From a virus (taxonomy: Duplodnaviria > Caudoviricetes), in IMG/VR virus record IMGVR_UViG_2687453321_000002, positions 1-64,000 of that record: DNA of 64,000 nt; one strand, written 5' to 3'. The notes beneath the pieces are model-generated. The model did no database searches. It saw only the letters and a list, made by a program, of their open reading frames with translations, and had not been told where the DNA came from. The translations under genes were made by a program, and so were the position numbers. Position 1 is the first letter of the stretch. Each line of letters opens with the position of its first letter. Positions 46,998-63,242 of this stretch are shown one piece after another.

Positions 46998-47106
46998 TTT
47001 CGTCCCTCGAAATTTTTATGGTTGTAACATAACGGACGTGGGGACATGTTTCAATGTTTGGTCAGTGTGGTAGTCTGTTCGAAAATTATGCTATGGAGGT
47101 CTGGAC

Positions 47107-47301
47107 ATGGAAATCAACGAAGAACGAGCAGTGTTTATAGCCAACGAGATCGGTGCCGCGGTTATCGACCTAATCGCAAATGGTATGGATGTGAACCGCC
47201 CTAACATTGCTGACTCTCTTGAGATGAAGCGTAAGATTGTCGGCAACACGCTATACAAGGGCGTATTGCGGGATGCAGCTGCATTAGTCCGTGAAAAATA
47301 A
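47107..47301 (+). CDS. Small hypothetical protein at prophage end
   Basis: SD GGAGG; 64 aa. Confidence 0.6.
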   Translation: MEINEERAVFIANEIGAAVIDLIANGMDVNRPNIADSLEMKRKIVGNTLYKGVLRDAAALVREK

Positions 47302-47481
47302 CAATGACCGGTCACCATTTTTTGCCGGTTGCCTACTTTGACGCTGGGGCGGTTCGTTCTGCAAAACTCAACTGAAACCACCATGAATAAAGGTCCATTA
47401 AACACGATTCGCTTGAAATGCCACAATCTGGAGTTGTGATATTTATATATATAATTCAGTTGGTTAATTTTGACATCGTAT

Positions 47482-47649
47482 GTGCTGCTGCGCCACATGG
47501 GCTGGTTCGAAGCGGCTAACCTGATCGTTAAGGGCATGGAAGGTGCTATCGCTGCCAAGACCGTGACCTATGACTTCGAACGCCTGATGGAAGGCGCTAA
47601 GCTGTTGAAATGTTCATGGTTTGGCGACGCTATCGTAGAGCATATGTGA
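47482..47649 (+). pseudogene. icd: Duplicated 3' end of isocitrate dehydrogenase (icdC-like), att junction
   Basis: Translates [54 protein letters not shown]; contains the e14/phage 21-type core TGCTGCGCCA. Confidence 0.93.
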
Positions 47650-47718
47650 TATAGTAACGAGTGAAATTAATAACGGGAGCTAAATGCTTCCGTTGCTTTA
47701 TTATTCAACTTGGATTTT

Positions 47719-47752
47719 TTATCAAAACATTATCAAAACGTTTTATCAAAAC
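47719..47752 (+). repeat. Integrase arm-type sites (3x TTATCAAAAC)
   Basis: Direct repeats at 47719, 47730 and 47743 between att core and int. Confidence 0.7.
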
Positions 47753-47770
47753 CCCCTCCAAATTCTCTCT

Positions 47771-48898
47771 TCAAACCGCGACAGTGATCCAATCTTTGCC
47801 TCGATCATCGTGATACCGGTCGGTCTGTTTCTGCGATTTGTGGCCCAACAATAACTGGGTATTGAGGCCTTGTTCGCTATAAAGCCTTTCGGCCAGAGAA
47901 CGCTGTTCGTGAAACGTTGCCGGCGTACCGGAACCCCAATCGATGTTTGCTTTATCGCGTGCTTTGCTGAAATTTACCGTGAGGGTATTGCCGCTTACCT
48001 GGGCGCCGCGTTGCGCCATCGATGTTGATCGGAAGTAATGGATCAGATACGGGCTGACGGCGTAATCTCGGCATCGTGCGACAACTTCACGCAGGGACAT
48101 GTTGATCGCTTCACAACGGAGTGAAAGGGGAATGGCAAGCTTAGCACCAGTCTTCTCTTGCACGATGTGCAAACAGTCATCCCAGATATCATTAAACCTC
48201 ATGGCAGAAATGTCCCCGAGGCGTTGGCCGGTGACCAAGGCTAACAGCATTGCATTTCCCATATACCGGTGATTCTTGTCCGCTATATCGAAAATCTGCT
48301 GCCACTCCTGCAGGCTGAGGCGTTGCCTGGTAATTTTCCTGCGTGGCTGTTTGGTGGCCAACGCAGGGTTATATCCCGGTGGGACCTCACCAACATGCTG
48401 CGCCTCTTTGAATACGTCGATCAGGACGGAACGAACAACCTGGGCCATACGTGGCTGCCCAGCTGCCGTATACTCATCCAGTAGCGCCGCAATATCGCGG
48501 GCATCCACGGCAGGTAAAGCCTTCATCGCGTAGTTTTGGCGCATGAGTTCAACGGGCTTTCGTTTCTGCTTGAAAGTATTGGGTTTAATATCGCCGGCAG
48601 AAAGGCGTTCTTCCTGTATTTTCCAGTATCGATCAAGCCAAGTGTTGACGGTAATTTCTTTCCCGCGGATCTGGGCAATTCTGTCGCTTAGAGCCAGCAT
48701 CTGGCGGCTTCTCTGCTCCGCTAGGCGATTATTTGCTTCAATCGCGATCTCTTTCGCTTCTTGCTCATTATCACCCAGGGCGTGGTATTTGCCGGTAATA
48801 GGGTGACGGTAACGCCAATAAATTTTATTGGCGGTCCGGCTAAAAAGTGGGTAAAGGTTAGGTATTGTTACGTTATTTTTCCGTGGTCTGGCAGCCAT
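47771..48898 (-). CDS. int: Tyrosine integrase (e14 IntE/phage 21 type)
   Basis: GQRLGD, FHEQRS, LLGHK, DRY; paralog of 1161-2288. Confidence 0.96.
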   Translation of the reverse strand: MAARPRKNNVTIPNLYPLFSRTANKIYWRYRHPITGKYHALGDNEQEAKEIAIEANNRLAEQRSRQMLALSDRIAQIRGKEITVNTWLDRYWKIQEERLSAGDIKPNTFKQKRKPVELMRQNYAMKALPAVDARDIAALLDEYTAAGQPRMAQVVRSVLIDVFKEAQHVGEVPPGYNPALATKQPRRKITRQRLSLQEWQQIFDIADKNHRYMGNAMLLALVTGQRLGDISAMRFNDIWDDCLHIVQEKTGAKLAIPLSLRCEAINMSLREVVARCRDYAVSPYLIHYFRSTSMAQRGAQVSGNTLTVNFSKARDKANIDWGSGTPATFHEQRSLAERLYSEQGLNTQLLLGHKSQKQTDRYHDDRGKDWITVAV

Positions 48899-49124
48899 CG
48901 TTCAAAATCCTCAGCAACCTTGGGTTGTCGTTCTTTCTCTTTTCCGGTTCTGCCAGCGATCCAACGAGTTCAGCATCCTCTCTCACACGCCACCATCGAC
49001 CTTCTTTTTGAGCTGGTGGGTTGAAGTGGCCGGCTTTGGCTCGTTGCCTCAATGTGCTCACTGAGGGTGGGTCGCTGCGGTATTTTTCAGCTGCCCATTC
49101 TTCAAGTTTTAGCATCTGTAGCAT
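48873..49124 (-). CDS. xis: Excisionase
   Basis: LEEWAAEKY..PPAQKEGRWWRV. Confidence 0.9.
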   Translation of the reverse strand: MLQMLKLEEWAAEKYRSDPPSVSTLRQRAKAGHFNPPAQKEGRWWRVREDAELVGSLAEPEKRKNDNPRLLRILNDGCQTTEK

Positions 49125-49169
49125 GAGTTATCTCCACACATAGGCCCGCTGCAACGGGCCGTTAAATAT

Positions 49170-49748
49170 TTACAGGTCGTTCGGATGCTGGTGGGGTGAT
49201 AGCAATCGCTGGTGGATTGCTGAAACATACTGTGCCTGGTGTACAGCGTCTGCCAGTGCATTGTGGCGTTCGCCGTCGAAAGGCAGATCGCGTTTCGGGT
49301 CGAATCCTACACGCCGGCCGAGGTTCACCATGGTGCGCACGTCCAAATCGTTAAACCAGTTCCAGCATGGCGCCTTACTGCAGCGCTCGTAGGCTTCACG
49401 CAGAATGACGTTGTCGAAGGCGGCACCGTTGCCCCAAACCTTCAGATACTTAGGCTGCTCGCAGCTGCGGGTGACAAAATTGGTCAACGCATCGAGGGCT
49501 TCAGCGATGGGCTTTGCCTCGTCACTGGTGATCGCCGCTCGGGCCTCGCTGCTTTGTTTCAGCCACCAGTTGATGGTATCGCCATCGGGAACGGCGCCGG
49601 CGGCCAATTCGCTCGCCAGATTTACCGCGGTATAAAACTGCGGGCCAAGATCACCCGTCATAGGGTTAAAGAACACGGCGCCGATCGCCACGATTGGTGC
49701 ATTTGGCTTGTTGCCTATGGTTTCCAGGTCAATCATCAGATCATTCAT
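49170..49748 (-). CDS. 3'-5' exonuclease (DEDDh, DUF5051-like)
   Basis: MIDLET, WGNGAAFD, HNALADA. Confidence 0.88.
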   Translation of the reverse strand: MNDLMIDLETIGNKPNAPIVAIGAVFFNPMTGDLGPQFYTAVNLASELAAGAVPDGDTINWWLKQSSEARAAITSDEAKPIAEALDALTNFVTRSCEQPKYLKVWGNGAAFDNVILREAYERCSKAPCWNWFNDLDVRTMVNLGRRVGFDPKRDLPFDGERHNALADAVHQAQYVSAIHQRLLSPHQHPNDL

Positions 49749-49926
49749 TGTTTTTACCTTGTGTTGGGGCCGCTGCCAGCCATTGAAATAGTTTTTCCGC
49801 ATCAGCTGCGTCGATAACGCGCTGGCCGTTGTCGAGGACGTGAACTTTTACCCGCATCCCGGCGACTTCCATCGTTTCCTCTGCAACCGAGACTGGCAAA
49901 TCAGACAGATCGCTCAGCTTATCCAT
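49741..49926 (-). CDS. Hypothetical protein
   Basis: MDKLSD start coupled to upstream small gene. Confidence 0.55.
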   Translation of the reverse strand: MDKLSDLSDLPVSVAEETMEVAGMRVKVHVLDNGQRVIDAADAEKLFQWLAAAPTQGKNNE

Positions 49927-50065
49927 GCTGGGCTTCCGCATATCTGATCCGTCCGTAATACTTGCCAGAGCGAAAGCGATAATGCTTTTTGCATTGCCAC
50001 ATGTCCTGTTCTGTCGTCAAATTGATGCCACGCACCAGGCGTGGTGAAAAGTTATGTTTAGGCAT
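49919..50065 (-). CDS. Small protein (48 aa), homolog of 13754-13930
   Basis: MPKHNFSPRLVRGINLTTEQDMWQCKKHYRFRSGKYYGRIRYAEAQHG. Confidence 0.75.
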   Translation of the reverse strand: MPKHNFSPRLVRGINLTTEQDMWQCKKHYRFRSGKYYGRIRYAEAQHG

Positions 50066-50393
50066 GGGTGATCACCCCACGGTGGTTGATGCGGTACACA
50101 CGTTTAGGCATGCCGGAATTTTGGCGATTGCCGTTGACAAACTGCGCCCACATTTTCAGTTCAAGTAAAAAGCCGCACATACCTTTCCCTGTCTTTCTGA
50201 CGCCAATCTTGTTGCTGTTTCCTATGCTCCGGCGAGCCTTTCGCATTACATTGCGGTTGTGGGCGTTGCACACCTCAAGCCAGCGGTCATTACCTCTATG
50301 CCTGTATGGCGAGAACGTCCGATAGCGCCGCGCCTGCAGCTCCTGTAGGTGCGAATGTTGCAAATCTTCGATGTAGGTTTGCTTGCTCATCAA
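50058..50393 (-). CDS. Hypothetical basic protein
   Basis: Coupled ORF in leftward operon. Confidence 0.55.
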   Translation of the reverse strand: MMSKQTYIEDLQHSHLQELQARRYRTFSPYRHRGNDRWLEVCNAHNRNVMRKARRSIGNSNKIGVRKTGKGMCGFLLELKMWAQFVNGNRQNSGMPKRVYRINHRGVITHA

Positions 50394-50704
50394 TCGTCAT
50401 CCTCATTGACCATAACCAGCTGCGTATCGTCCGGTACTTCCATGGTCAGCTGGACGCTGTAACCTCGCTCATGCATGGAGTATGAGACAGGCCAAGCTGG
50501 TACCGGCACGTCTTCGCCAACCTGGCAAAGCCCAATAGCCCAGCAACCTTCATCGGTGTAGGTTGCGACAACCAGCACTTCGCCCTCAGCAGATTTCAAG
50601 TGATAGATCCCCAGCTCGTTAAAGCAGCCGATCTCTTCACGTATCGCACCCTCAACCTCAAACAGATCATCGCTGGCGCCATAAAACTTCAGTATTTTGC
50701 TCAT
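50390..50704 (-). CDS. Hypothetical protein
   Basis: FYGASDDLFE motif. Confidence 0.65.
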   Translation of the reverse strand: MSKILKFYGASDDLFEVEGAIREEIGCFNELGIYHLKSAEGEVLVVATYTDEGCWAIGLCQVGEDVPVPAWPVSYSMHERGYSVQLTMEVPDDTQLVMVNEDDD

Positions 50705-50722
50705 GCTGTTTCCTTCAGGGCT

Positions 50723-50983
50723 TTAGCCCGATTGTTTTGGCTGATAGAACGCATCCATCAGGAAGCGTTTGCCGAGTTTGGTTAATTTCCCGTGCAGCTT
50801 CTTCGTGAAGCCGATTTCCACCATGATGGTAGAGAGGGTGTGGCCAGACCATGAGTCACACGCAGCTTTAAGGCACCCTTGCTCTAACATTTTCCGTTTG
50901 TTAACGGGGCCAAAGTTGGTGCCGTCGAACGCTTGCTCAATATACTCATCCGTGATGTGGTCGCAGTTAACCGGTTTAGCCAT
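50723..50983 (-). CDS. Hypothetical protein
   Basis: Coupled ORF. Confidence 0.55.
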   Translation of the reverse strand: MAKPVNCDHITDEYIEQAFDGTNFGPVNKRKMLEQGCLKAACDSWSGHTLSTIMVEIGFTKKLHGKLTKLGKRFLMDAFYQPKQSG

Positions 50984-51464
50984 TGCCATCCCCCTTCACG
51001 AAGATGATCCAGTGCGTTTTGTCGTTCTTTCCGGTGCGCTGCCAGATCGCCGGTTTTTCGTCTGTGAGGGCGATGATCTGGCTAACCGGTATCTGGGTTT
51101 CGTTCCATTTGAAGATCAGCACGCCGTGTGGCCGCAGCACGCGGAAAGCCTCGGCGAACCCGGCTCGCAGTTCATCGCGCCATGTTTCACGGTCGAGCTT
51201 CCCGTACTTCTTGCCCTGCCAGCCATTGGGGCCTACGCGCTCCAGGTGCGGCGGGTCGAACACGACAACAGAGAAACTGCCGTCTGCAAACGGCAGCGCT
51301 GTGAAGTCGGCGATCAGGTCCGGGGAGATAACCAGCTTTCTACCGTCGCAAAGGGTGTGGCTCTCGCAGCGCTTGTCGCTGAATACAGCGCGCTCGTCCT
51401 CTTTGTCGAACCAGAACATGCGCGGACCGCAGCACATATCGAGGATTGTTTTATCAGTCAGCAT
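50976..51464 (-). CDS. SAM-dependent (probably DNA amino) methyltransferase
   Basis: ILDMCCG and FDPPH motifs. Confidence 0.85.
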   Translation of the reverse strand: MLTDKTILDMCCGPRMFWFDKEDERAVFSDKRCESHTLCDGRKLVISPDLIADFTALPFADGSFSVVVFDPPHLERVGPNGWQGKKYGKLDRETWRDELRAGFAEAFRVLRPHGVLIFKWNETQIPVSQIIALTDEKPAIWQRTGKNDKTHWIIFVKGDGNG

Positions 51465-51648
51465 CTTCGGCCTCCTGGCGTTGCGCCGGGATCACTCCAT
51501 CAACCGGCAGACACTCGTATTGCGAGGGTAATTTCTGCTGGTGGATATCCGCCAGGCAGTTACTTTTGTCTGGATATACCCAGCCTTGCGGCACAAATTC
51601 GCAGGGCTGATAGGTGTAGCAGACGAGCAGGAACAGGCCGAACATCAC
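51454..51648 (-). CDS. DUF1482/YebW-like protein
   Basis: MFGLFLLVC..C..C..ECLPVD Cys pattern. Confidence 0.6.
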   Translation of the reverse strand: MMFGLFLLVCYTYQPCEFVPQGWVYPDKSNCLADIHQQKLPSQYECLPVDGVIPAQRQEAEDAD

Positions 51649-52178
51649 GCAGCCCTCTCGTTGGCCAGCTGGTTATAACGCTGCATGAACATCGCCCTGG
51701 CCTGTACTGGATTGACTGGTGAAACGAAAATGTCTTCCGAAGGGCGGATCCCGTTGAGCATTGGCCAAGGTGTCCCATCGTCAATGTCGAGATCGCGGCG
51801 TTCGGTGGCCAGCATCACCAGATCGGCATGCTTGACGATCGGGCTGGTGGTGGCTGGAAGGCCGAATTTATAACGAATAACAAAATCAATATTATTTTCG
51901 ATGCCGCGATAGTCGGGAATTAACTTTTTAAGCGGTGATGGAATATCTTTGCAATATGCTTCGTGCGCGTCATGCAGTAATGCTTCAAAAGCAAAACTAG
52001 GCGGGACGATTTTACTGGCAATGACACAATGCTGTGCCACGCTATAGAATTCAGGAATATGACCATTGAAGCGACATTCATGAGATAAGGCTTGTGCTAT
52101 ATCTTCAATGCAAATAGCGTCAACGGTTGGCGCTTCGTAATCAAAGCGTTTACCCGTAAAAGTTAAAATCCAAGACAT
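51645..52178 (-). CDS. HD-domain 5'-deoxynucleotidase-like protein (YfdR family)
   Basis: CRFNGH..YSVAQH..LLHDAHEAY. Confidence 0.85.
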   Translation of the reverse strand: MSWILTFTGKRFDYEAPTVDAICIEDIAQALSHECRFNGHIPEFYSVAQHCVIASKIVPPSFAFEALLHDAHEAYCKDIPSPLKKLIPDYRGIENNIDFVIRYKFGLPATTSPIVKHADLVMLATERRDLDIDDGTPWPMLNGIRPSEDIFVSPVNPVQARAMFMQRYNQLANERAA

Positions 52179-52263
52179 AATTATTCTCCACACAGTTTTT
52201 GGCAACACTTCACCAAATACCCCATTGCTGGGGTATTTGAGGCTGTATTACTTATTTAAAAAA

Positions 52264-53091
52264 TCAGGCTTTGAAATTACCGATGAAGGTTTCGACTGAA
52301 CCGCCATCGAATTTATCGATCAGCAGATCGCGAAACTCGTTGGCAATTGCTTCTTCCTGCGCTTCAAGTTGAACAATGCGCAGGACGAAAAGCGGTTCGT
52401 CACTTTTCAGAAGGCTATTGCGGAGGCTGAACTTGCGTTCCCCGAGGCCTTCATACGGCGTGCAGGTGAATTCGAATGCAACCGGCATCACGTCTTTGCT
52501 GCTGGCTTCAATGCTTTGCATGAGTGATTTTTTACCGCTGAAATCACCGTCTTCATGATCTGCTTCTGACATTTGCTTAATGCTTACGCGGCGAACGGCA
52601 CCGGCAGCCTGCGAGATAGACATTGCTTTACCCTCGGCATCAAATGCTTCCAGATAGTCGCTCCAGTCTTCCAGCCATTCGGCAATATTTTTCTGGCGCA
52701 GGCGTTCGCCATCTATTGCCAGCAATGCACGATATGGTGCTGTTTTCTTGAGTTTGATCGAAGCGACGTTATCGGCATGGCCTGGATTCTCAAGGGAACC
52801 GATATTGAACACTGACCGTGCACTCATGTTGTCGGCGTCAATGAAGCAGCGTGCTGGTTCATCCTGTTTGGCATAGCCGGTGGAGTAGCGAACAAAATCG
52901 GCAATGCTGGTTGTTTCCATGATGCCGCGGAAGCGGAAGCGTTCCAGGCCGAATCGTTCAAGACTTTCGACGCCAACACCTTCAGGTAAAATTGCTGTCG
53001 GGCAGGCCAGTCCTTCGATATCACGAAGGTGATAACCAGAAATCACCAGGTCTTTAATTTGTTGAATTGCTCCGCCATCTAATTGAGACAT
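52264..53091 (-). CDS. YfdQ/DUF2303 family protein
   Basis: RFRFRG..T.SI.DF, PGHAD, CTPYEGL. Confidence 0.85.
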   Translation of the reverse strand: MSQLDGGAIQQIKDLVISGYHLRDIEGLACPTAILPEGVGVESLERFGLERFRFRGIMETTSIADFVRYSTGYAKQDEPARCFIDADNMSARSVFNIGSLENPGHADNVASIKLKKTAPYRALLAIDGERLRQKNIAEWLEDWSDYLEAFDAEGKAMSISQAAGAVRRVSIKQMSEADHEDGDFSGKKSLMQSIEASSKDVMPVAFEFTCTPYEGLGERKFSLRNSLLKSDEPLFVLRIVQLEAQEEAIANEFRDLLIDKFDGGSVETFIGNFKA

Positions 53092-53145
53092 AAAATAATC
53101 CTTTGGGTTTAATTGAATAGAGCGTTTATGAATAAGGGCGCGTTA

Positions 53146-53517
53146 TTACTTTGCGACCCGTAATTTACCGTCAGTGCCACCATCTACTGTAAATAGCTGA
53201 CCTTGGTCTTCTTGCAGAATTGTTAACTTACCGCCTTTGCCAACGTACATTGGCGTTTCGGTGGTATCTTCTTCTGAAACTTTCCCACGTGGTGTTGGGG
53301 TTACAAATTTCAGTTGATGTTTAATGCTGACGCGCTTTTCTTCAACCGAATTGCTTAAACGATCAATGTCGAGGGTAATAACGACTTTACCTTTACCGCC
53401 ATTATTAAGAACGCCCAGCGCAGTAGCGTTTAATGCTGCTGAAAATTTATTTTCAAACACGCCGGCATCCAGTTCACCCAGAAAGTCCGGCACATTGGTT
53501 TTGCGGTCTTCACTCAT
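53146..53517 (-). CDS. YfdP-like protein
   Basis: TNVPDFLGELDAGVF, EEDTTETPMYV. Confidence 0.8.
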   Translation of the reverse strand: MSEDRKTNVPDFLGELDAGVFENKFSAALNATALGVLNNGGKGKVVITLDIDRLSNSVEEKRVSIKHQLKFVTPTPRGKVSEEDTTETPMYVGKGGKLTILQEDQGQLFTVDGGTDGKLRVAK

Positions 53518-53561
53518 AAAATAGTCCTCACACGAAGCGGCGATCGCCGCGGTTTTCTCCA

Positions 53562-53640
53562 CACACCTGGTGGCGCACCGTGCCGGGCTATACTGTGGAG
53601 AAATTAATAAGGAAACCGGCACAGTACGCCACCTGATGTG
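53562..53640 (-). ncRNA. Candidate structured RNA: 25-bp stem with loop containing TTTCTCCACAG (anti-barcode)
   Basis: Stem has 3 G.U pairs and 1 mismatch on minus strand; 29-nt loop complementary to TGTGGAGAA. Confidence 0.45.
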
Positions 53641-53937
53641 TAAAAAGGGCGGCCAGCCTATGAACATTATCTTCATCCTCCTGGTGTTGGTGGGTTGAAG
53701 TTCGGCGTGGCCGCCAAAGACTACACAAAGCAATTCATCGGTTGTGGTGGCCGGCGGACAACGCCCCTGAAGTCCACCAGCCAGATCCACAACGGTATGC
53801 TCACTCATGAGTTAGGATCTTCCACCGCTCCCAGAACTGAGGGAAAGGGCGAGTGAGCATGCCGTTGTGTGCCGGGATTTTTAACCACGCCCGGCGCGTG
53901 GTATCTTGGAGTTCTCACACAACCAAGAAGGATTGAG

Positions 53938-54123
53938 ATGAAAAATATTGATGCTGTAACTCAATTTGCGTTTGAATATATCCGCAATCAAAATGAAACT
54001 TATTCGTCACCTGCTGAATTTCTGATGGCTGTGAATAAAATTAAGTGCCAGTTTGCTGATCTTCTTGAATGTTCCCCTTCGGAGCTCCATAAGGCTGTTG
54101 TTGATGCTCGGGAGACGAATTAA
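53938..54123 (+). CDS. Small hypothetical protein opposing the pL operon
   Basis: SD AAGGA; 61 aa. Confidence 0.5.
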   Translation: MKNIDAVTQFAFEYIRNQNETYSSPAEFLMAVNKIKCQFADLLECSPSELHKAVVDARETN

Positions 54124-54358
54124 CGCAATTCAGAACCGCTCTCATACCAACAACCATTGCTTCTGCAGTGGTTGTTACTGCGCTGAGCACATCAGCCTTG
54201 GGTTTTCCACGTAGCACGTAGTCTTCAGCGACGCGTGATATAGTTGGCCCAAATAATTCAACCAAATAATTAGCAAAATGTTTGTTTACTTCTTCGCCGA
54301 AGAAATCATTCATACATTCTTCGTGGGACTTCTGTTTTTCGATAACCTTTCCCATCAC
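54041..54358 (-). CDS. Hypothetical protein, first gene of pL operon
   Basis: 105-aa ORF after structured leader. Confidence 0.5.
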   Translation of the reverse strand: MMGKVIEKQKSHEECMNDFFGEEVNKHFANYLVELFGPTISRVAEDYVLRGKPKADVLSAVTTTAEAMVVGMRAVLNCVNSSPEHQQQPYGAPKGNIQEDQQTGT

Positions 54359-54462
54359 CTAAACCCCTTACTGAAAGTCACCTGAGCGAATCATCCCGAT
54401 CTTCATGCGCCTCGGGCGGCTACTTCGTGGGCGTCCTGCCTGTTCGCTGTTGATGAATTAAA

Positions 54463-54512
54463 GTTTACATAACAAAACAAATGCGTCAAGCGAAAAGTTT
54501 GTATATCAAAAC
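54463..54512 (-). promoter_or_regulatory. OL operators of prophage 2
   Basis: GTTT-N8-AAAC at 54463-54478 and 54497-54512; TTGACG -35 on minus strand. Confidence 0.65.
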
Positions 54513-54589
54513 TTGAGCGAGGCAGGAGTACAAGAAAACCCAGTTATACTGGGTTGGTTAATGTGATGTTCTCAAATTGTATGCTGCGG

Positions 54590-55240
54590 TTAGGGTAGTC
54601 TTGATAGAACCTGTAAACAGACACCAATTACTTGGCCCAGGCTGGCAATTTGGATCGCTTTGTAATTGCTGTTAAGTGGAACAAGGTAGATGTTTGGTCC
54701 ATCGACGGATAACTTCTTAATTGTGACAGTCTTGTGGTCATCGAGCAATGCAATAACAATACGACCAGCCGTTGGCTCTTGGGTTGGATCAACTATCACC
54801 GTGGCGCCAAGTGGAATTGTGACATCTCCGACCGCGCTTACCATAGAGTCATTGTCCATCTGTACTGCAAATGAGAAGGGGGATACGTCATCCGAGACTG
54901 TTATCCAATTTTGGAAGTGAGTTAAATCCTGATTCATTAGATCGCTCCATTCCCCCGCCTGCTGTAATGATAATAGAGGAATTTTTTGGAGTTCTCTGGT
55001 ATTCGCGACCGGCGATTTTTGCCTTTGAGCGCCGCCTAACAACAACCACTGTTCACTGACTCTCAGTACTTTAGCCAGTGGAGCTATATATTGTGCAGAT
55101 GGTTCGTTTCCTCCGTTCACCCATTGGCTCACGGTGCCCTTTGACGCCTTGGTGGCCTCAATCAGATCTTTGCTTTTCAGGTTGAGTTTCTGCATCTGCA
55201 TCTTGATGCGTTCACTCATCGTCATGTCTTGAATTTTCAT
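54590..55240 (-). CDS. cI: CI repressor with S24 peptidase (RecA-cleavable)
   Basis: HTH; QAG cleavage site, DSM Ser, TIKKL Lys. Confidence 0.9.
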   Translation of the reverse strand: MKIQDMTMSERIKMQMQKLNLKSKDLIEATKASKGTVSQWVNGGNEPSAQYIAPLAKVLRVSEQWLLLGGAQRQKSPVANTRELQKIPLLSLQQAGEWSDLMNQDLTHFQNWITVSDDVSPFSFAVQMDNDSMVSAVGDVTIPLGATVIVDPTQEPTAGRIVIALLDDHKTVTIKKLSVDGPNIYLVPLNSNYKAIQIASLGQVIGVCLQVLSRLP

Positions 55241-55302
55241 GTTTGTATTTTTAAACACATATGGTTTTGATGCTTGACCTTGTTGGGTTTTGATAGTTAA
55301 AC
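55241..55302. promoter_or_regulatory. OR operators of prophage 2
   Basis: GTTT-N8-AAAC at 55241-55256 and 55287-55302; degenerate 55264-55279. Confidence 0.65.
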
Positions 55303-55320
55303 TCAATAATAAACTAGGAG

Positions 55321-55542
55321 ATGAGCATGAAAAAATCAGAAGTCTTGGCCCATTTCGGTGGAACAAACGCCACAGGAAAGGCTTTGGGAGTATCAAAGAG
55401 CACCGTCAGCCTGTGGGGGGAGCTAATTCCATGGCAATACGCGTTGTTGATATCTGAAGTTACTGATAACGCGATCAGATTCAACCGCGAGGATTATCCA
55501 GAGAGATTCAGCAACGTGAGCAATGGCAGTAGTGATATTTGA
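55321..55542 (+). CDS. cro: Cro
   Basis: KKSEVLAHFGG..GKALGVSKSTVSLWGELIP. Confidence 0.88.
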   Translation: MSMKKSEVLAHFGGTNATGKALGVSKSTVSLWGELIPWQYALLISEVTDNAIRFNREDYPERFSNVSNGSSDI

Positions 55543-55611
55543 CTCTCATCGAACTGATACAGAAGTCTACTGCCTCGGCAAGATAACAGTAACTACCAAA
55601 GGAAAATCAAC

Positions 55612-56085
55612 ATGGTAGAACCAAATTTGAAAGACGTAGTGAAGGGCATGTGCAAGGCAGTGGCTGGTGGTCGATCGGCGATGGCCGGCGCATTGGGCAT
55701 GTCGGAGACGGCGTTCAACAACAACCTCTACGAGAAGAACGGTTGCCGCTTCTTCGAGATCGGTGAACTGGAAGCGATGGAGGATATCTCGGGCACCAAC
55801 CTGCTGACCGAATATTTCGCCCGGCGCCGGGGTTTGCTGGTGGTGGAGATCCCCGCTCTGGACGAATTGGACCAGGTGGAATTGTTCAGCAAAAGCATCC
55901 GCACCGCCGCACACCGTGGGCATGTGGATCAAATCATTCAGGAGTCGCTTGCAGATGGCGTCATTGATGAGAAAGAAGCTGCCGAGATCATGCGTTATCA
56001 CCGCAAGCACCTGCAGGCGCGTGATGCAGAGGTTAGGGCGGTGCTGGCGCTGTTTGGCAAAAAGGCCAAGTGCCAGAAAGGGTAA
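55612..56085 (+). CDS. YmfL family regulatory protein
   Basis: MAGALGMS..FNNNLYEKNGCRFF. Confidence 0.85.
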   Translation: MVEPNLKDVVKGMCKAVAGGRSAMAGALGMSETAFNNNLYEKNGCRFFEIGELEAMEDISGTNLLTEYFARRRGLLVVEIPALDELDQVELFSKSIRTAAHRGHVDQIIQESLADGVIDEKEAAEIMRYHRKHLQARDAEVRAVLALFGKKAKCQKG

Positions 56086-56148
56086 CGCCCAGAGGTTGCA
56101 GCCCCTGGGCGTCAGTGCGAGTAAATCAGTGTGTGGAGAAATAATCGC

Positions 56149-56343
56149 ATGAGCAATTTAACCAGAAATTCTATGGTGCCGCAAATCCGCTGCCGTGCAA
56201 TGACTGGCGGTAATTCTGCGTCGCCGTTCCGGTATGAGGTCAATGTACTGGGTCGGTGGATTGCCAGCAACTACCAGTTTGCCAGATGGGTGGTAGATGG
56301 CGGCGCCTGGTTGTCACGACACAGCGAGGTGAAGCATGACTAA
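56149..56343 (+). CDS. Small hypothetical protein upstream of Rha gene
   Basis: Starts after GTGTGGAGA SD. Confidence 0.6.
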   Translation: MSNLTRNSMVPQIRCRAMTGGNSASPFRYEVNVLGRWIASNYQFARWVVDGGAWLSRHSEVKHD

Positions 56344-57157
56344 TCTACCAGCGACCGGGATCACTATGACCAGCCTGGAGCTGGTGGACTACATCAACGC
56401 TGAGCGTGAGTCGAAAGCGATCGCCGCCGGCGCCTCGTTCCCGAGCAAGGGCCATACCCGTTTGCGCCACGCCGATTTTATGGCGAAGGCGCCGCGGGTA
56501 TTGGGTGAAAACCACTCAACGAAATTTTTCGCTCAGTACACCGACCCGACCGGGCGCGAGCTTCCATGTCTGCACTTACCCAAGCGCGAAGCCTGCCTGA
56601 TGGCAATGAGCTACAGCTACGAGATACAGGCGAAGGTGTTCGATCGCATGACGGCGCTGGAGCAGGCCAACGTACCGGCGCCACAACTGCCGGCGACCAA
56701 GACAGACCAGATCCAGGCCGGGTTGTTGATCGTGGAATCTGCTACCAAGCTGCTGAATCTCTCTCAGTCGTCACGCTTGGGGGCATTGCAGAAGCTGCAA
56801 GAGCTGGCTGGCCTGCCGGCGCTGATGCCGGTATACGCCATTGATGCGCCATCGGATGCCGTTGACGGCTCCAGCCGGCCGACAGCGGCGATCACCACTC
56901 TGTTGAAGCTGAACAGCAGCACGATGAGCACGCCGGTGGCCTATCGCATTCTGGAACGGCTTCGGATAGTCGAGCGTAAAAGCCGCCCAAGCCGGCGCCA
57001 CGGTGAAAAGCACTTCTGGTCGATCACCGCCACTGGTCTGCGGTTCGGGAAAAACATCACCTCACCGAATAACCCGCGGGAAACCCAGCCCCATTTCTAT
57101 GAATCGCGCTTCCCAGAGTTGCTGCAGCGCATCTACGACGAGTGGAGGCGCGGTTAA
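56336..57157 (+). CDS. Rha-family/antirepressor-like protein
   Basis: MTSLELV..LRHADF..LPKREACLMAMSYS; FGKNITSP.NPRETQPH C-terminus. Confidence 0.8.
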   Translation: MTNLPATGITMTSLELVDYINAERESKAIAAGASFPSKGHTRLRHADFMAKAPRVLGENHSTKFFAQYTDPTGRELPCLHLPKREACLMAMSYSYEIQAKVFDRMTALEQANVPAPQLPATKTDQIQAGLLIVESATKLLNLSQSSRLGALQKLQELAGLPALMPVYAIDAPSDAVDGSSRPTAAITTLLKLNSSTMSTPVAYRILERLRIVERKSRPSRRHGEKHFWSITATGLRFGKNITSPNNPRETQPHFYESRFPELLQRIYDEWRRG

Positions 57158-57336
57158 TGGCGGCTAATTACCCAGATATCGGCAGTCGCTGGCGTGATCA
57201 GCATGGTCACGTAGTCATCATTGCCGCGCACGACATTGAAAATCAGAAAGTTGTTTACCAGCGCCCAGGCTACGAGTGGCATTGTGCTTGCCCTCTGATC
57301 ATCTTCTGGGCCCGTTTTACCAGGACTATTTTATGA
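57157..57336 (+). CDS. DUF4222 protein
   Basis: WRDQHG..V..RPGYEW.C.CP. Confidence 0.75.
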   Translation: MAANYPDIGSRWRDQHGHVVIIAAHDIENQKVVYQRPGYEWHCACPLIIFWARFTRTIL

Positions 57337-58346
57337 GTACGAAATTGACCGCATACGTGTGGGACGGTTGCGCGGCGGCGGGCATGAAACTGTCCATGGT
57401 AGCCATAATGGCGCGCCTGGCTGACTTTTCCTCGGATGAAGGCCTGTGCTGGCCGTCAGTGAAGACGATCGCCCGTCAGATTGGCGCCAGTGAAAGCACG
57501 GTGAGCGCGTCGCTGGCCAAACTGGAAAAAGACGGCTGGATCACCCGCCAACAGCGCCGGAAGGGCAACCGCAATACCTCAAGCATGACGCAGCTGAACG
57601 TTGAGATGCTTCGCGCTGCTGCAAATTCTCACCCTCCAGAATCTGAGGCATCAAAATCTGATGCATCAAAATTTGATACCTCAAAATCTGACCCGTCAAA
57701 ATCCAGCAATACAGGGCGTTTTGACCCTCCAGAATCTGGATACGATCCGTCAGTAAATTCAAAACATGATCCATCAGATAAAAACACTTTTGGTCAACCG
57801 CCGGCGGCGGCCGACCAGGGGGATGTTGTTTCTGAAGAAATTCACATCACTGATCAGGCCATTCTGGTGCTGAAACACCTGAACCAACTGACGGGCGCCA
57901 AATACACCACTGCCAAATCCACCCTGCAGAACATCCGGGCCCGACTTGTGGACGGACACACGCTAGAGGAACTCAAGCTGGTGGTGGAATTCCTCGTCCA
58001 GCGTTGGCTGGGGACTGAATACGCCAAGTACCTGAACCCGGAAGCGATGTTTAAGCCGGTCAAGTTCCCGGGCAACCTGCTGGCGGCTACAGCCTGGCAT
58101 GACGGCGGGCGGAAGCCTGAGCAAGCCCGTTCGGTGCCGGTGGCCTGTGCAGAGCGTGACGCGGCCTATCGTCGTTTCATCGGTAACAGTCTGCCGCTTC
58201 AAAACCCGGGCGAGCTGGAGACGTTGGCGAGAACTGAGGCCAGCAAAGCCGGCGTGCGCACCATGCAGCCGAGTTACGCAGTGCCGGCATGGAACCGCAT
58301 TTGGGCTGATTGTGCCCAGCGCCTGAACGGAGGGAAGGCCGCATGA
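57333..58346 (+). CDS. Replication initiator (HTH + conserved phage C-terminal domain)
   Basis: ARLADFSSDEGLCWPS; internal 15-bp repeats. Confidence 0.85.
   Translation: MSTKLTAYVWDGCAAAGMKLSMVAIMARLADFSSDEGLCWPSVKTIARQIGASESTVSASLAKLEKDGWITRQQRRKGNRNTSSMTQLNVEMLRAAANSHPPESEASKSDASKFDTSKSDPSKSSNTGRFDPPESGYDPSVNSKHDPSDKNTFGQPPAAADQGDVVSEEIHITDQAILVLKHLNQLTGAKYTTAKSTLQNIRARLVDGHTLEELKLVVEFLVQRWLGTEYAKYLNPEAMFKPVKFPGNLLAATAWHDGGRKPEQARSVPVACAERDAAYRRFIGNSLPLQNPGELETLARTEASKAGVRTMQPSYAVPAWNRIWADCAQRLNGGKAA
57631..57738 (+). repeat. Iteron array (TCAAAATCTG-based 15-bp period), probable origin
   Basis: Tandem tcaaaatctgatgca/tcaaaatttgatacc/tcaaaatctgacccg flanked by two accctccagaatctg. Confidence 0.75.
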
Positions 58347-58585
58347 AACCAGTAACCAAACAAATTTGTGGCGTTACCGTCTTCCCGCTGGTGGCTGTAC
58401 TGCAGCAGCTCCGCCGGTGGTGGTCTATCCGAGGGCTGCGAATCCATTGGGCTGATGATCAGGATCTGCGGCGTATAGCCCGGGAACGCAACTGGGTGCG
58501 CGTACTGACCCAATTCAACATCGAGGCGCGTTATCGCTTTATCAAGCTGCTGGTCACTGCTGAACAGCAAAGGGGGATCCTGTGA
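58343..58585 (+). CDS. Hypothetical protein
   Basis: Coupled between rep and dam. Confidence 0.55.
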   Translation: MKPVTKQICGVTVFPLVAVLQQLRRWWSIRGLRIHWADDQDLRRIARERNWVRVLTQFNIEARYRFIKLLVTAEQQRGIL

Positions 58586-59121
58586 CCGTATATTCAAGCA
58601 ATACGCCAGCAGAGCACAAAGACCGCTGGCAAACCCCGATCGAGATATTCAGCGCGCTTGATGTTGAGTTTGGTTTCTACCTGGACGCTGCAGCAGACCA
58701 CGGCAACGCGCTGTGTGCTCGTTACCTAACAGAGCAGGATAACGCGCTGGCGGTGGATTGGGAGAGCTACGGCGCCATCTGGTGCAACCCGCCATACAGC
58801 GCCATAACGCCTTGGGTGGAAAAGGCCGCGGAACAATGCCGCGCGCAGAATCAGCCGATCGTGATGTTGCTGCCGGCAGACACCTCAACAGGTTGGTTTT
58901 CGTTGGCGCTGCAGTCCGTCGATGAAGTTCGCTTTATTACCGATGGGCGCCTGGCGTTTATTAATTCCGCCACAGGCAAGCCGGGGAAGAACGGCAACAG
59001 CAAAGGCAGTCTGTTGTTCATCTGGCGGCCATTTATCAAGCCGCGGTGCCAGTTCACCACGGTATCCCGCGACGAGTTGATCGGGATCGGCGCCGGTGCT
59101 CTCCGCGAAGTGGCGGCATAG
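58582..59121 (+). CDS. dam: Phage N6-adenine methyltransferase (Dam-like)
   Basis: DRWQTP, LDAAA, WCNPPYS, LLPADTSTGWF. Confidence 0.9.
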   Translation: MTVYSSNTPAEHKDRWQTPIEIFSALDVEFGFYLDAAADHGNALCARYLTEQDNALAVDWESYGAIWCNPPYSAITPWVEKAAEQCRAQNQPIVMLLPADTSTGWFSLALQSVDEVRFITDGRLAFINSATGKPGKNGNSKGSLLFIWRPFIKPRCQFTTVSRDELIGIGAGALREVAA

Positions 59122-59264
59122 GCAGGGGTGACATCATGAAAAATAAGCAATATAGTGATCCACGCGTATCCACTCTTGCAGGGGTAAGAGATGCGCAGGT
59201 TGGTCCCGTCTATTTGCAGATAGCGGGGCGGGACCTGATAAAAATCAGTGTGGAGAATAAGAAC

Positions 59265-60002
59265 ATGAATCAGTTTGATCTGATTGGTGGCGCTTGCGCA
59301 TACCAACCTACCGTTAGCCCATTCGAATTAGCCATGACCAGCCTGGAGATCGCCGAGCTGGTTGGTAGTCGTCACGACAAAGTCAAACAATCCATTGAGC
59401 GATTGGCAGAGCGTGGCGTGATAGCTTTACCCCCAATGGGGGAAAAGGTCACTGCAGGTCGCCCGGCGGCATACTACGTCTTTGAGGGAGAGCAAGGTAA
59501 GCGAGACAGCATCATTGCTGTTGCCCAGCTTTCGCCTGAGTTCACCGCCCGCCTGGTAGACCGCTGGCAAGAACTGGAGCGCAGCCGGCAGAGTCAGCCA
59601 CTCACACAGCTTGAAATCCTTGCCCGCATGGCGACAGAGGCCGCAATCAACGAACGTAAGATGATGGCCCTGCAGCAGCAAGTGAACGGCGTAGAGCAGA
59701 AAATCGAGGAAATATCCTCTGGATCTATCCCCGCTGGCTGGGAAACCGTCCGCAACCTTTCGGCAAAATCTGGCATCTCGAACCAAAAGATCAGGGACCT
59801 GGTCGCCGCCTTTGCCGTACCCAATAAAAAAGTCCCTTTCATGGCGCCTAATGGCATTTTGACGAACGTCACAGTTATCGAAGAATGTGAGTTTGACGGC
59901 GCCATGCGCACCCTGCTTGACGAATCGACTCCGCCGAAGAAGGGGAAATATTGGCAGCACCCGGCGATAGGGCGCTTCGAAATCCGACGAGGCGCAGAGT
60001 GA
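59265..60002 (+). CDS. Rha/Roi-like regulatory protein
   Basis: MTSLEIAELVGSRHDKVK..AQLSPEFTARLVDRWQELE. Confidence 0.85.
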   Translation: MNQFDLIGGACAYQPTVSPFELAMTSLEIAELVGSRHDKVKQSIERLAERGVIALPPMGEKVTAGRPAAYYVFEGEQGKRDSIIAVAQLSPEFTARLVDRWQELERSRQSQPLTQLEILARMATEAAINERKMMALQQQVNGVEQKIEEISSGSIPAGWETVRNLSAKSGISNQKIRDLVAAFAVPNKKVPFMAPNGILTNVTVIEECEFDGAMRTLLDESTPPKKGKYWQHPAIGRFEIRRGAE

Positions 60003-61036
60003 GGCTGCTACTAACACCCTACCTGCAGCGTGATCTGGGCGTAGTGATACTGCGCCCCGGTCGTGAGCTGCTGCATTATTTCAGCAGCCAGCGCCGGTTG
60101 TTGATTGCCAACGAACCAGAAGAGCTAAAACCACTCCCATCGGGTTTGCTGCCGGCCGCCGATCAGGGGCTGGCCAATGATCCGCGTCTGTTGCCATTTT
60201 TCATGCATGAGCGAGTTATTGGTGCCGCTGGTGGTGTTGCTGCGCTGCGTGAGTGGCTGAGCCGCGGCACCGAGTGCCAGTGGCCACATGGCGACGGTTA
60301 TCACAATCACAACATGGATATTCTGGATTATGACGGCTTGCCAGTCCGTTTGTGCTGGCACCATGAACACCTGCTTCGGGAGCAAATCCACCCTACGCTG
60401 GACGCTTTGGCAAAGCAGAATGTTGCGGATTGGCTGGTGTACCGGGCCCGCACGCACTTTCGGTTCAAAGAAGATCACCAGCTGAGCCTGCCGGAATTGT
60501 GCTGGTGGGCCGTGCTAAATGGTGTTTCCGATCTGTTGCCTGATTCGGTGGCGCGCTCGGCATTGCGCCTTCCACCAGCACCAGACGAAACAGGTACGCG
60601 TAAAGAGTCGGATATCGTCTGGGAAAAGGAGCCGAAGGCGATAATCAACGAGCGCGTGGAGAAGGTTAAGCCGGCGTTACTCGTTGATGTGGACCCGGCT
60701 CCGCCGGCGGGCTTTATGCTGCGGCCAAAATTGACGCGCTGGGAATGCGAAAAGTACACCCAGTGGGTGAAGTCGCAGCCTTGCTGCTGTGGTTGTGGAC
60801 TGCCGGCAGACGACCCGCATCACATCATCGATCAGGGCCTGGGCGGCACTGGCACCAAGCCTCACGACATTTTCACCATTCCTCTGACCCGCAAATGCCA
60901 TAACGAACTGCATGATGATGTAGCGGCATGGGAGGCCAAACACGGCAGCCAGCTGTTCCACCTGGTGCGCACGCTGAATAAGGCATTCGGGATTGGGGCG
61001 ATCACCACGGCAAACAAACGCGGGGTAAAGGCATGA
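59999..61036 (+). CDS. DUF968 (YdfU-like) HNH protein
   Basis: VRLCWHH, PELCWWA, ADDPHH, IPLTRKCHNELH. Confidence 0.88.
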   Translation: MRLLLTPYLQRDLGVVILRPGRELLHYFSSQRRLLIANEPEELKPLPSGLLPAADQGLANDPRLLPFFMHERVIGAAGGVAALREWLSRGTECQWPHGDGYHNHNMDILDYDGLPVRLCWHHEHLLREQIHPTLDALAKQNVADWLVYRARTHFRFKEDHQLSLPELCWWAVLNGVSDLLPDSVARSALRLPPAPDETGTRKESDIVWEKEPKAIINERVEKVKPALLVDVDPAPPAGFMLRPKLTRWECEKYTQWVKSQPCCCGCGLPADDPHHIIDQGLGGTGTKPHDIFTIPLTRKCHNELHDDVAAWEAKHGSQLFHLVRTLNKAFGIGAITTANKRGVKA

Positions 61037-61854
61037 ATATTGAAACGGCATTGAAACACTTTAGCCCGAAAAGTTTGCATATCTCTGACACCTCCCGAGC
61101 TACTGCAAGTGAAGATTTAACGGGCACTGACATTATGGCTGCGCTTGGAATGGTAGAGGCGAAAGCTGCATTTGGGATGGCGCTGTGCTTTGGTAAATAT
61201 GGCGTCAGCAAAGAAGACCGGGATCGCTCGGTCGATATGCTAACGCAATTTGCCAGCCAAAATGCGCCCAGGGCGATAAAGCGAGCCGCCGGCGCCAAAT
61301 TAGGCCGTTGTCTGCGCATCATGGCTGCCATGGCCTACGGTGAATTTTGCCGGTCTGCGTTATCAGCAGAATCCTGCTCATGTTGCCAGGGCCGGGGACT
61401 GGTTCGCAAAACTGAGATAAATCGAAACGAGCTGGCGATCCTGTGGGAAGAAAATAAATTCAGAATTAAGAATGGGTTGTGGATGTTGAAGGAAAGCAGC
61501 CAACCACCAGCAAAGACGATATGGGAAGATGTCACTATGGTGGTCTGTCCAGTATGTAGCGGTAAAGGCAAGGTTAGCGCTCGTTGCCGTTGCCAGGGGA
61601 CCGGTACCGTTCTGGATAAAAAGGCGAGTGAACTTAAAGGTGTTCCGGTCATGAAGGAATGCCCAAAATGTAAGGGTAGGGGATTTAAACGGGTTCAACC
61701 GTCAGTCATACACCATGCGGTTAAAAAGCTTATCCCTGAACTGCCTGAGCGTACATGGCGTTATAGCTGGAAACCGTTTTACGAATCGCTGCTTACCAAA
61801 TGCTACCAGGAAGAGAGCGAATTGGAGCGTATTTTCAGTAAGGTCACCCGGTGA
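61033..61854 (+). CDS. Q: Late antiterminator Q (lambda/Qin-type, Zn-finger)
   Basis: LKHFSPKS..LTGTDIMAALG; repeated CxxCxGxG. Confidence 0.88.
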   Translation: MNIETALKHFSPKSLHISDTSRATASEDLTGTDIMAALGMVEAKAAFGMALCFGKYGVSKEDRDRSVDMLTQFASQNAPRAIKRAAGAKLGRCLRIMAAMAYGEFCRSALSAESCSCCQGRGLVRKTEINRNELAILWEENKFRIKNGLWMLKESSQPPAKTIWEDVTMVVCPVCSGKGKVSARCRCQGTGTVLDKKASELKGVPVMKECPKCKGRGFKRVQPSVIHHAVKKLIPELPERTWRYSWKPFYESLLTKCYQEESELERIFSKVTR

Positions 61855-61866
61855 AAAACTGGCCGC

Positions 61867-61959
61867 TTGCAAAAGTTGCCGTTTTTTCCTAATATCAGAC
61901 CTAACGATGGGGTTTGTACGCCCGTTAAAGAAAAGTCCGCCACCGAGCGGGCTTTTTTT
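61867..61959 (+). promoter_or_regulatory. pR' and tR' of prophage 2
   Basis: TTGCAA-17-TAATAT; AAAGTCCGC-caccga-GCGGGCTTTTTTT. Confidence 0.6.
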
Positions 61960-62029
61960 GTGCGCGAATGTAAAGATAACCATATGGTATTGTGTGGTTA
62001 ATGGGGAATGTTTTAGAATTCGCCACCTT

Positions 62030-62106
62030 GGCCCTTTAGCTCAGTTGGTTAGAGCGCACGACTCATAATCGTTCGGTCGCTGGTTCAAGTCCAGCAAGGG
62101 CCACCA
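62030..62106 (+). tRNA. tRNA-Ile2 (CAT anticodon)
   Basis: Near identical to 17037-17113. Confidence 0.93.
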
Positions 62107-62108
62107 AA

Positions 62109-62135
62109 CCGCCATTAGCTCAGCAGGAAGAGCAA
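62109..62135 (+). pseudogene. 5' fragment of the second tRNA
   Basis: Identical to 17116-17142, then similarity ends. Confidence 0.8.
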
Positions 62136-62227
62136 TGACACCATTTCAAATCGACCCGCCTAGTGCGGGTTTTGTCATTTCTGGAGCCTCGACTTTTGTC
62201 GGGGCTTTTCTGTTTCTGGAGTTTGCT

Positions 62228-62713
62228 ATGGCTGAAGAGGTCTGGAAAGATGCTTATGGATATGAAGAGTTTTTCTCTGTTAGCTCCAATGGGCGGATAA
62301 TGAGCAAGCGAACGGGGAAATTACTTCGGCAGTCTACAGGGCACAACGGATATAAATTACTTAGTACCAGGCTGGAAGGACGTGCCGGTAAGTCAATCTG
62401 TATACGCGTTCATCGGCTTGTGGCATCAACTTTTCTGCCTAACGTAAATGGTGCTCCTTGCGTAAACCATTTGGATGGCAATAAACAAAACAATCACGTC
62501 AATAACCTAGAATGGTGTGACCATTCTCGAAATACGAAGCATGCATTCGAGCTTGGCTTGGTAAATCGTAGACCAACAACGCTGACCCTAAAACAACAGA
62601 AATTAGCAATTGAAATGAAACAGAGTCATGGGTGCTCCAACCGACATATTGCTGGGATCATAGGTGTTGGGCCTGGCGTCATTCATCGGTTTGTGCGACG
62701 CGCTCAACTTTGA
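62228..62713 (+). CDS. NUMOD4-HNH homing endonuclease
   Basis: EVWKD..GY..VSSNGRI; VHRLVA..F; VNHLDGNKQNN..NLEW..N..HA. Confidence 0.9.
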   Translation: MAEEVWKDAYGYEEFFSVSSNGRIMSKRTGKLLRQSTGHNGYKLLSTRLEGRAGKSICIRVHRLVASTFLPNVNGAPCVNHLDGNKQNNHVNNLEWCDHSRNTKHAFELGLVNRRPTTLTLKQQKLAIEMKQSHGCSNRHIAGIIGVGPGVIHRFVRRAQL

Positions 62714-63213: not shown

Positions 63214-63233
63214 ATTCTGTACATGTACAGAAT
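63214..63233. promoter_or_regulatory. Probable Phd operator
   Basis: Perfect 20-bp palindrome ATTCTGTACATGTACAGAAT just upstream of phd. Confidence 0.7.
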
Positions 63234-63242
63234 GAGGTGAAT

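Follow-up and report, generated by a model that had tools for sequence, protein, structure and literature searches.

An RNA module made up of a hairpin and an adjoining Shine–Dalgarno (SD) sequence recurs between the early genes of a lambdoid prophage and of its relatives. The prophage is contained in the IMG/VR record IMGVR_UViG_2687453321_000002, a 90,419-base provirus contig, of which bases 1–64000 form the window analyzed here (64,000 nucleotides, to which all positions refer), and its early region occupies 47.7–62 kb, as judged from Pfam and PHROGs scans of 30 open reading frames (ORFs). In this region, four copies of a common SD box stop 7–10 nt short of the ATG codons of xis, a yfdR-like gene, a 64-codon ORF and the second of two Rha genes (Rha2). 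The hairpin and the SD box together are best read, with slightly better than even confidence, as a cis-acting intercistronic RNA module that is used where ribosomes must start afresh. The lineage of the module is probably that of the ST64B/phiNP-type lambdoid prophages with yfdP-yfdQ-yfdR genes.

Lambdoid early operons are the classic example of regulation through repressors, terminators and antiterminators, and RNA signals conserved between their cistrons have received little attention so far. A portable hairpin-plus-SD cassette, if this reading is true, would explain how genes of any origin are expressed once they have been dropped into mosaic operons, and the constant loop of the hairpin provides a concrete handle toward a new RNA-binding factor or processing step. 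Text searches of the literature, the scope of which did not include subscription journals, returned no description of the motif. The question is directly testable since cultured members of the group exist, such as ST64B, phiNP, AH07 and yong2.

The box and its hairpins in the early region

The sequence TGTGGAGA occurs in six exact copies in the window, all of which fall within 49131–59256. The expected count is 1.76, and none of 100 shuffled sequences reached six copies, the largest count being five. Five of the six copies read GTGTGGAGA, and a seventh copy of TGTGGAGA lies beyond the window at 65272, within coding sequence. The box GTGTGGAGA is the SD sequence of xis (49131–49139, minus strand; ATG at 49124), of the yfdR-like gene (52185–52193, minus strand; ATG at 52178), of the 64-codon ORF that overlaps the start of the first Rha gene, Rha1 (56131–56139, plus strand; ATG at 56149), and of Rha2 (59248–59256, plus strand; ATG at 59265). 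A first-pass annotation of this DNA had proposed a bipartite signal, with this box at the same four starts and a hairpin loop ahead of three of them, and every coordinate that it gave for the box there proved to be right. It had also reported a copy upstream of the yfdP-like gene; this copy is present (53556–53564, minus strand), but it lies 40 nt ahead of the ATG and is not the SD sequence of that gene. Together with an inverted copy at 53594–53601 (plus strand), which the annotation had missed, it forms the two arms of an inverted repeat in the hairpin upstream of yfdP.

The distribution of the box was compared with the layout of 26 genes from int to Q, which were tabulated from our own ORF calls. 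An untranslated gap of at least 45 nt precedes eight of these genes; four of the eight have the box as their SD sequence, and yfdP, with its more distant copy, is a fifth. The box is absent from all 16 genes that overlap or abut. The gaps are folded almost completely up to the box.

According to RNAfold, UUGCAG stands at the apex of three hairpins, located at 49143–49160 (minus strand), 56085–56113 (plus strand) and 59196–59237 (plus strand), where it is drawn as a U.G pair closing UGCA; over the folded stretches, energies lie between -15.6 and -24 kcal/mol. The first of these hairpins (GGCCCG/UUGCAG/CGGGCC) comes after the exonuclease stop codon and ahead of the SD sequence of xis. The second, P1, has one unpaired base in its stem and directly follows the cII stop codon. 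A possible further helix, P2 (56115–56120 with 56145–56150, plus strand), which is weakly suggested by the minimum-free-energy structure, would enclose the box and reach into the AUG. The third hairpin is found in the 143-nt gap before Rha2 (-22.1 kcal/mol, z -3.77). TTGCAG loops had been predicted at 49149–49154, 56096–56101 and 59214–59219, as confirmed here, and also at 59176–59181, which instead belongs to the stem of another hairpin.

Two further gaps contain hairpins of a different kind. The hairpin before the yfdR-like gene (52202–52251, minus strand; -26 kcal/mol, z -3.47) carries a GNRA-type loop, A[GCAA]U, and not UUGCAG. Upstream of the yfdP-like gene there is a long hairpin of ~20 bp (53556–53646, minus strand; -61.6 kcal/mol, z -6.41), in which the GUGUG of the box at 53556–53564 forms the 3' base, paired with CACAC, and the apical loop holds UCUCCACA (53594–53601). 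A frame at 53518–53808 (minus strand) is open across this long hairpin, in frame with yfdP; it is probably not coding, because a length difference of 1 nt breaks it in relatives. In addition, a UUGCAG loop caps an 8-bp stem within the methyltransferase gene (51276–51297, minus strand), with a U-rich tail behind it, and one related locus (L092) keeps this stem via a change on both sides.

The hexamer TTGCAG itself is not enriched in the window (62 copies versus 48 expected, with four of 100 shuffles reaching 62); what goes beyond chance is its position in the loops of hairpins upstream of start sites. In the terminator scan only the hairpin in the methyltransferase gene was listed, as terminator-like, and those before xis, after cII and before Rha2 have no U-tract. 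The promoter scan gave no promoter-like site inside the modules. A promoter-like site with 10 of 12 matches was observed at 59128–59156 (plus strand), just after Dam and upstream of the hairpins in the Rha2 gap; from it, Rha2 would be transcribed separately, behind a leader of ~100 nt containing both hairpins.

Conservation in related phages

Loci of relatives were collected around homologs of four proteins, a choice that biases which positions were visible. The loci kept numbered 80 of 580 for Rha2, 80 of 598 for YfdP, 80 of 579 for cII and 18 for Xis.

The site after cII was represented by 41 distinct sequences, and the window sequence was aligned with 31 of these after ten near-identical rows had been dropped by eye. 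In the 32 aligned sequences UGGAG and the loop motif GC.G are invariant, and the hairpin folds in every one of them, with energies of -11.6 to -21.7 kcal/mol. The apex reads U[UGCA]G in 12 sequences, U[GUGCA]G in 11, U[AUGCA]G in five, AUGCG in two and otherwise in two, with UGCA being present in 28 of the 32. An unpaired base is retained a few pairs below the loop. In the outer helix, 95.7% of the alignment cells are paired and four pairs are kept through changes on both sides; the covariation score was reached by none of 500 shuffled alignments. The P2 helix is paired in 75.4% of the cells, with one covarying pair. In many relatives (L189–L215) the frame of the cII homolog continues through the hairpin and ends either at a UAA immediately downstream of GGAG or within an AUGA that it shares with the next gene.

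Upstream of xis, a hairpin with TGC(A/G) in its loop was found in all 14 distinct sequences (TTGCAG in six, GTGCAG in two, GTGCG in two and others in four), a set that omits three near-identical rows and one locus (L258) in which the match does not begin at the gene start. The stems differ, the second pair from the loop being C-G in four sequences, G-C in nine and U.G in one. These loops and those after cII bear out the earlier proposal of a loop that is constant over changing stems. Its authors had named loss of the loop from homologs, in advance, as the outcome that would speak against it, and the loop is retained in homologs.

The hairpin upstream of yfdP has 28 predicted pairs, 12 of which are kept through changes on both sides among 19 sequences. 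UGUGUGGAG is invariant at this site, and its GUGUG constitutes the 3' base of the helix. In all six of the loci examined in one group (L094–L104), a tRNA gene (~2862–2943, plus strand; Gly-ccc in five loci and Asn-gtt in one) takes the place of this hairpin and is followed by the same AAAUCAGUGUGUGGAG. At the position upstream of yfdR, some relatives carry a hairpin with a GUGCAG loop instead of the GNRA loop. Loci of the L105 type are not to be called E. coli-like, since their yfdR-upstream module had no near match in the complete genomes of E. coli. The signal is not specific to excision and antirepressor-like genes, over which the first-pass annotation had seen it spread; relatives also carry it before yfdR-, yfdP- and other genes. 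Among the 80 loci with Rha2 homologs, the box precedes the Rha homolog in only one (L001, 91% identity), which is also the only close homolog and retains the hairpin of the Rha2 gap. The box is not bound to Rha genes but to positions in this phage lineage.

The association with start sites was also evaluated from the hairpins alone. Of 41 distinct perfect-stem hairpins with a [T/G]TGCAG hexaloop, 30 are followed within 45 nt on the same strand by an SD sequence and the start of an ORF of at least 40 codons; the same test read antisense gave two of 44, and eight control hexaloops yielded four hairpins in total. With stems of at least 6 bp, loops ending in TGCAG or TGCGG account for 18 of 209 hairpins that precede a start versus 11 of 2237 others, and the two commonest loops ahead of starts are TTGCAG and GTGCAG. 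The hairpins lie at mixed distances from the preceding stop codon, -35 to 107 nt, as obtained with a stop-finder that accepted any frame.

The SD sequence behind such hairpins varies in the loci of relatives and is not always GUGUGGAG. ST64B uses AUGGAGAA, both upstream of xis and behind its ORF on the cII side; in other lineages the box is AGUGGAGAA, AGCGGAGAA or AAAGGAGAU, and GUGUGGAGA is the version of the present lineage. Because the SD sequence varies among lineages in this way, the general signal is a hairpin with a UGGAGA-type SD sequence, and GUGU is a local flavour. The module was found in Salmonella phage ST64B, the early left operon of which has a gene order matching that of the window, and the element after cII is also present in phages AH07, yong2, Kp4866-6 and phiNP. 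The early region of lambda contains no such hairpin and lambda no GTGTGGAG, and the module was not found in the early region of HK022. The ST64B-type operon is placed in one group with phiNP and phage LLS in the available portion of a 2025 paper (PMC12315714).

Interpretation of the module

The position, strand and spacing of the module, the covariation in its stems and the conservation of its loop are direct observations, and from them we infer effects on the stability, processing and translation of the transcript. Most genes of the operon overlap or abut, so that ribosomes would pass straight from one to the next. The gaps of at least 45 nt are filled by a stable GC-rich stem-loop, mostly with the loop U/G-UGCA-G, and a few bases past it a strong SD sequence, UGGAGA(A), stands 7–10 nt ahead of the AUG. 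A gap folded in this manner would offer little free RNA to Rho or RNase E. The stem-loop may also provide cleaved transcripts with a protected end, and it may keep the initiation box clear of the upstream sequence, which would permit a fresh start whatever gene is upstream. As a side effect, the short common sequences at some mosaic junctions may help gene exchange between phages.

The tRNA that replaces the hairpin upstream of yfdP, followed by the same AAAUCAGUGUGUGGAG, fits a processing signal ahead of a fixed 5' leader; the substitution and the RNase III-sized helix at this site both point toward processing. In T7, the early mRNA carries RNase III hairpins between cistrons, and mitochondrial transcripts are punctuated by tRNAs. 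The likeness to these systems lies in the structured elements between cistrons and in the ability of a tRNA to replace a hairpin at the same position, and the helix upstream of yfdP is long enough for putative cleavage by RNase III. However, the other hairpins of the module, of 5–7 bp, are too short for RNase III, and to our knowledge a conserved loop is not a feature of either system.

Several points weigh against the proposal of an intercistronic cis-acting module. No box is present in the gaps ahead of yfdQ, cII and the first leftward ORF, and the hairpin before yfdR has a GNRA loop rather than UUGCAG; the module is thus not obligatory. The cII frames that run through the hairpin in some relatives imply that ribosomes must at times melt it. 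The counts over loci refer to distinct sequences that include relatives, and are not independent events. Of 24 sequencing runs listed as expression data, four were mapped: three were sets of long contigs, labelled as RNA but not shown to be transcribed, and a single raw-read run gave 0 matching reads, so that these runs speak neither for nor against transcripts. Furthermore, a purely structural role does not account for a loop that barely changes across four or more non-orthologous hairpins.

This constancy of the loop, which the favoured reading leaves unexplained, keeps a specific RNA-binding factor in play. The U.G-closed (N)UGCA loop could be the operator of a sequence-specific RNA-binding protein, either an early phage protein or one of the host, that represses or activates translation, or acts as an endoribonuclease, and exerts joint control over the hairpin-marked genes; we consider this tentative and rather unlikely. 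It would suit a loop that is constant over unrelated stems at non-orthologous sites (after cII and before xis and Rha2, and before yfdR or yfdP in relatives) and a hairpin that directly adjoins the SD sequence. The unpaired base in the stem after cII recalls the operator hairpins of RNA phages, in which one lies a few pairs beneath the loop. A factor bound to the loop beside the UGGAGA box might, although our confidence in this is low, act jointly on xis, the antirepressor-like genes and further early genes by switching their translation or processing, and if this were true the hairpins would form a post-transcriptional regulon in the intercistronic gaps of ST64B/phiNP-type lambdoid phages. 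However, the Pfam and PHROGs scans of the 30 ORFs revealed no RNA-binding family except for the Rv2179c-like exonuclease domain, and the loop is not uniform (UUGCAG, GUGCAG, UAUGCAG and UGCGG). In addition, the hairpins also occur in loci of 61% GC from another phage type, so that a phage-encoded factor would have to be widespread.

Antisense control appears improbable. It might operate in trans, with the apical loop of the hairpin at 53556–53646 (minus strand), which has a c4-like layout, pairing with the boxes, or in cis, through short RNAs like sar or OOP, transcribed from the opposite strand, that would terminate at the hairpins and span the ribosome-binding sites (RBSs). The antisense RNA c4 of P1/P7 has paired a/b target boxes, and a c4-like base-pairing mechanism had been suggested in the first-pass annotation. 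The window resembles this system (C4 and isrK in Rfam) in the presence of an early operon beside an antirepressor-type gene and of a short box at the RBS, and differs in that its sites are spread over unrelated genes with a hairpin and an SD sequence at each, whereas c4 acts on two single-stranded boxes. The loop of the 53556–53646 hairpin is complementary to 8–11 nt of the boxes, and the same hairpin gave the best match of the whole 90-kb contig to the Rfam C4 covariance model (53566–53636, minus strand). However, this match reached 15.3 bits (E 0.18) against a cut-off of 45, and comparable sub-threshold matches were found in five of 14 control genomes. Scans with all Rfam families detected no C4 or related match in 47000–64000 at E ≤ 10, none in the whole window at the gathering score and none in 64001–90419 at E ≤ 1, a stretch in which a search for the regulatory RNA had been proposed.

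Conservation likewise argues against pairing. A loop with UCUCCACA had been predicted, and it is present in the long hairpin of the window, but it is not conserved: the closest relatives have UCUACACA or UUGCACA in its place together with unchanged target boxes, which means that the anti-box does not covary with its targets. A partner bearing CUGCAA was likewise expected, but none was found; the sequence turned up only on the strand opposite these hairpins and at scattered sites in genes. A C4 RNA would have two loops complementary to the a and b boxes that are kept in relatives; one complementary stretch was found. Neither a C4 RNA nor a conserved complementary RNA therefore supports the suggested mechanism. 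With respect to control in cis, P22 sar and lambda OOP are cis-antisense RNAs, and the likeness consists of a hairpin between the upstream gene and the RBS of an antirepressor or cII-adjoining gene. The sequence 5' of the hairpins is A-rich, so that antisense RNAs would have U-rich tails; however, these tails were not scored as terminators, no convincing antisense terminator was found in the scan, and no antisense promoter-like site was found at these starts.

The search was effective in ST64B, which served as a positive control: C4 scored 79.7 bits and isrK 64.3 bits at 12005–12193 (plus strand) of its locus (L259), close behind the homologous small ORF that follows cII, with a Rha-type gene next, at the same place of the right operon. 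The association with c4 has a basis in this neighbourhood, but the present prophage is without that C4/isrK module. In ST64B, isrK and C4 are located inside the coding sequence annotated as sb41, which suggests that this 'transcriptional regulator' ORF spans the small ORF, two small RNA genes and the Rha-type gene.

Other RNA-based readings were rejected. A DicF match (RF00039) at 53647–53729 (minus strand) scored 23.6 bits (E 0.23) against a threshold of 48, and none appeared in 16 related loci at the gathering score. Pairing of the apical loop upstream of yfdP with the hexaloops, compared by eye, fits the L105 type and not L099, L109 or the type of the window, and was taken as coincidence. 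Pairing of the loop with helix h45 of 16S rRNA would have the wrong polarity relative to the SD sequence, given the 3' end of 16S rRNA.

It also seems unlikely that the modules are recombination linkers which act at the DNA level at gene borders and have no essential role in expression. The precedent is the PeSL of T4-type phages, described in the available text as a cassette of a sigma-70 promoter and stem-loops that terminate effectively (PMC2839356). As far as that text goes, the likeness is that of a short repeated intergenic stem-loop cassette before many early genes and at mosaic junctions (PMC2839356). The present module has neither a promoter nor a U-tract and is accordingly not a PeSL; its second part is an SD box, and the sequence of its loop is conserved. 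The homology of all three contig sets begins exactly at 49131, with pieces of one set beginning at 53554 and 56076, and the same AAAUCAGUGUGUGGAG behind either a hairpin or a tRNA would also suit a linker. However, 9 to 20 bp is short for homologous exchange, and the covariation in the stems and the strict strand bias toward the downstream gene argue for selection on the transcript. A BLAST survey of breakpoints between the window and all loci showed clusters where the very genes through which the loci had been retrieved begin and end; it was confounded and was not used.

Very improbable, finally, are nut-like antitermination sites, in which a boxB-like hairpin and then a boxC-like GU-rich element would load host Nus factors: the box shares UGUGUGG with rrn boxC (UCUGUGUGGG), a GU-rich heptamer that in the portions available of two papers follows a hairpin and lies in the leader-trailer helix (PMC10250234, PMC2724277), much as the GU-rich strand upstream of yfdP belongs to a long helix, and the order of hairpin and boxC equals that of the rrn leader as given there (PMC10250234), but the box here doubles as an SD sequence, no boxA consensus was seen by eye, the Pfam and PHROGs scans of the 30 ORFs gave no N-like protein, and at least 4–5 sites per genome each abut a start codon instead of one site serving an operon.

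Gene layout and other observations

The genes on the minus strand comprise int, xis, an Rv2179c-like exonuclease gene, small ORFs, a methyltransferase gene, yfdR-, yfdQ- and yfdP-like genes and a gene for a cI-type repressor. Those on the plus strand are cro, a CP76-type cII, the 64-codon ORF, Rha1, DUF4222, an O-like replication gene, Dam, Rha2, DUF968 and Q. Downstream of Q, a tRNA and an STnc100 match (60.8 bits) were observed at 62030–62103 and 62951–63138 (plus strand). In the whole contig, the plus strand has 26 copies of the Chi octamer GCTGGTGG and the minus strand three, counts that fit a description of lambdoid phages rich in Chi and lacking a Rec module in the part of the 2025 paper available (PMC12315714).

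A stretch of ~80 nt at 54382–54461 (minus strand), starting from the predicted PL start, is unannotated and is 84–96% identical in many phages (YeP1-3, phiNP, AH07, ZF40, SfII, ST64B, SfV and mEp460). An assignment of this leader to the put RNA of HK022 was rejected, as it has no similarity to the early region of HK022 and its structure is ordinary (z +1.43). A noncoding stretch at 53864–53932, which contains a CCACGCGCCGGGCGTGG hairpin and sits upstream of a YdiH-like small gene on the plus strand, has 81–89% identity to SopEPhi and to 63 of 5426 E. coli genomes. In the O-like gene, two copies of a 20-nt repeat lie 93 nt apart at 57626–57738 (plus strand), and four TCAAAAT-type repeats, identified by eye between these copies, resemble origin iterons.

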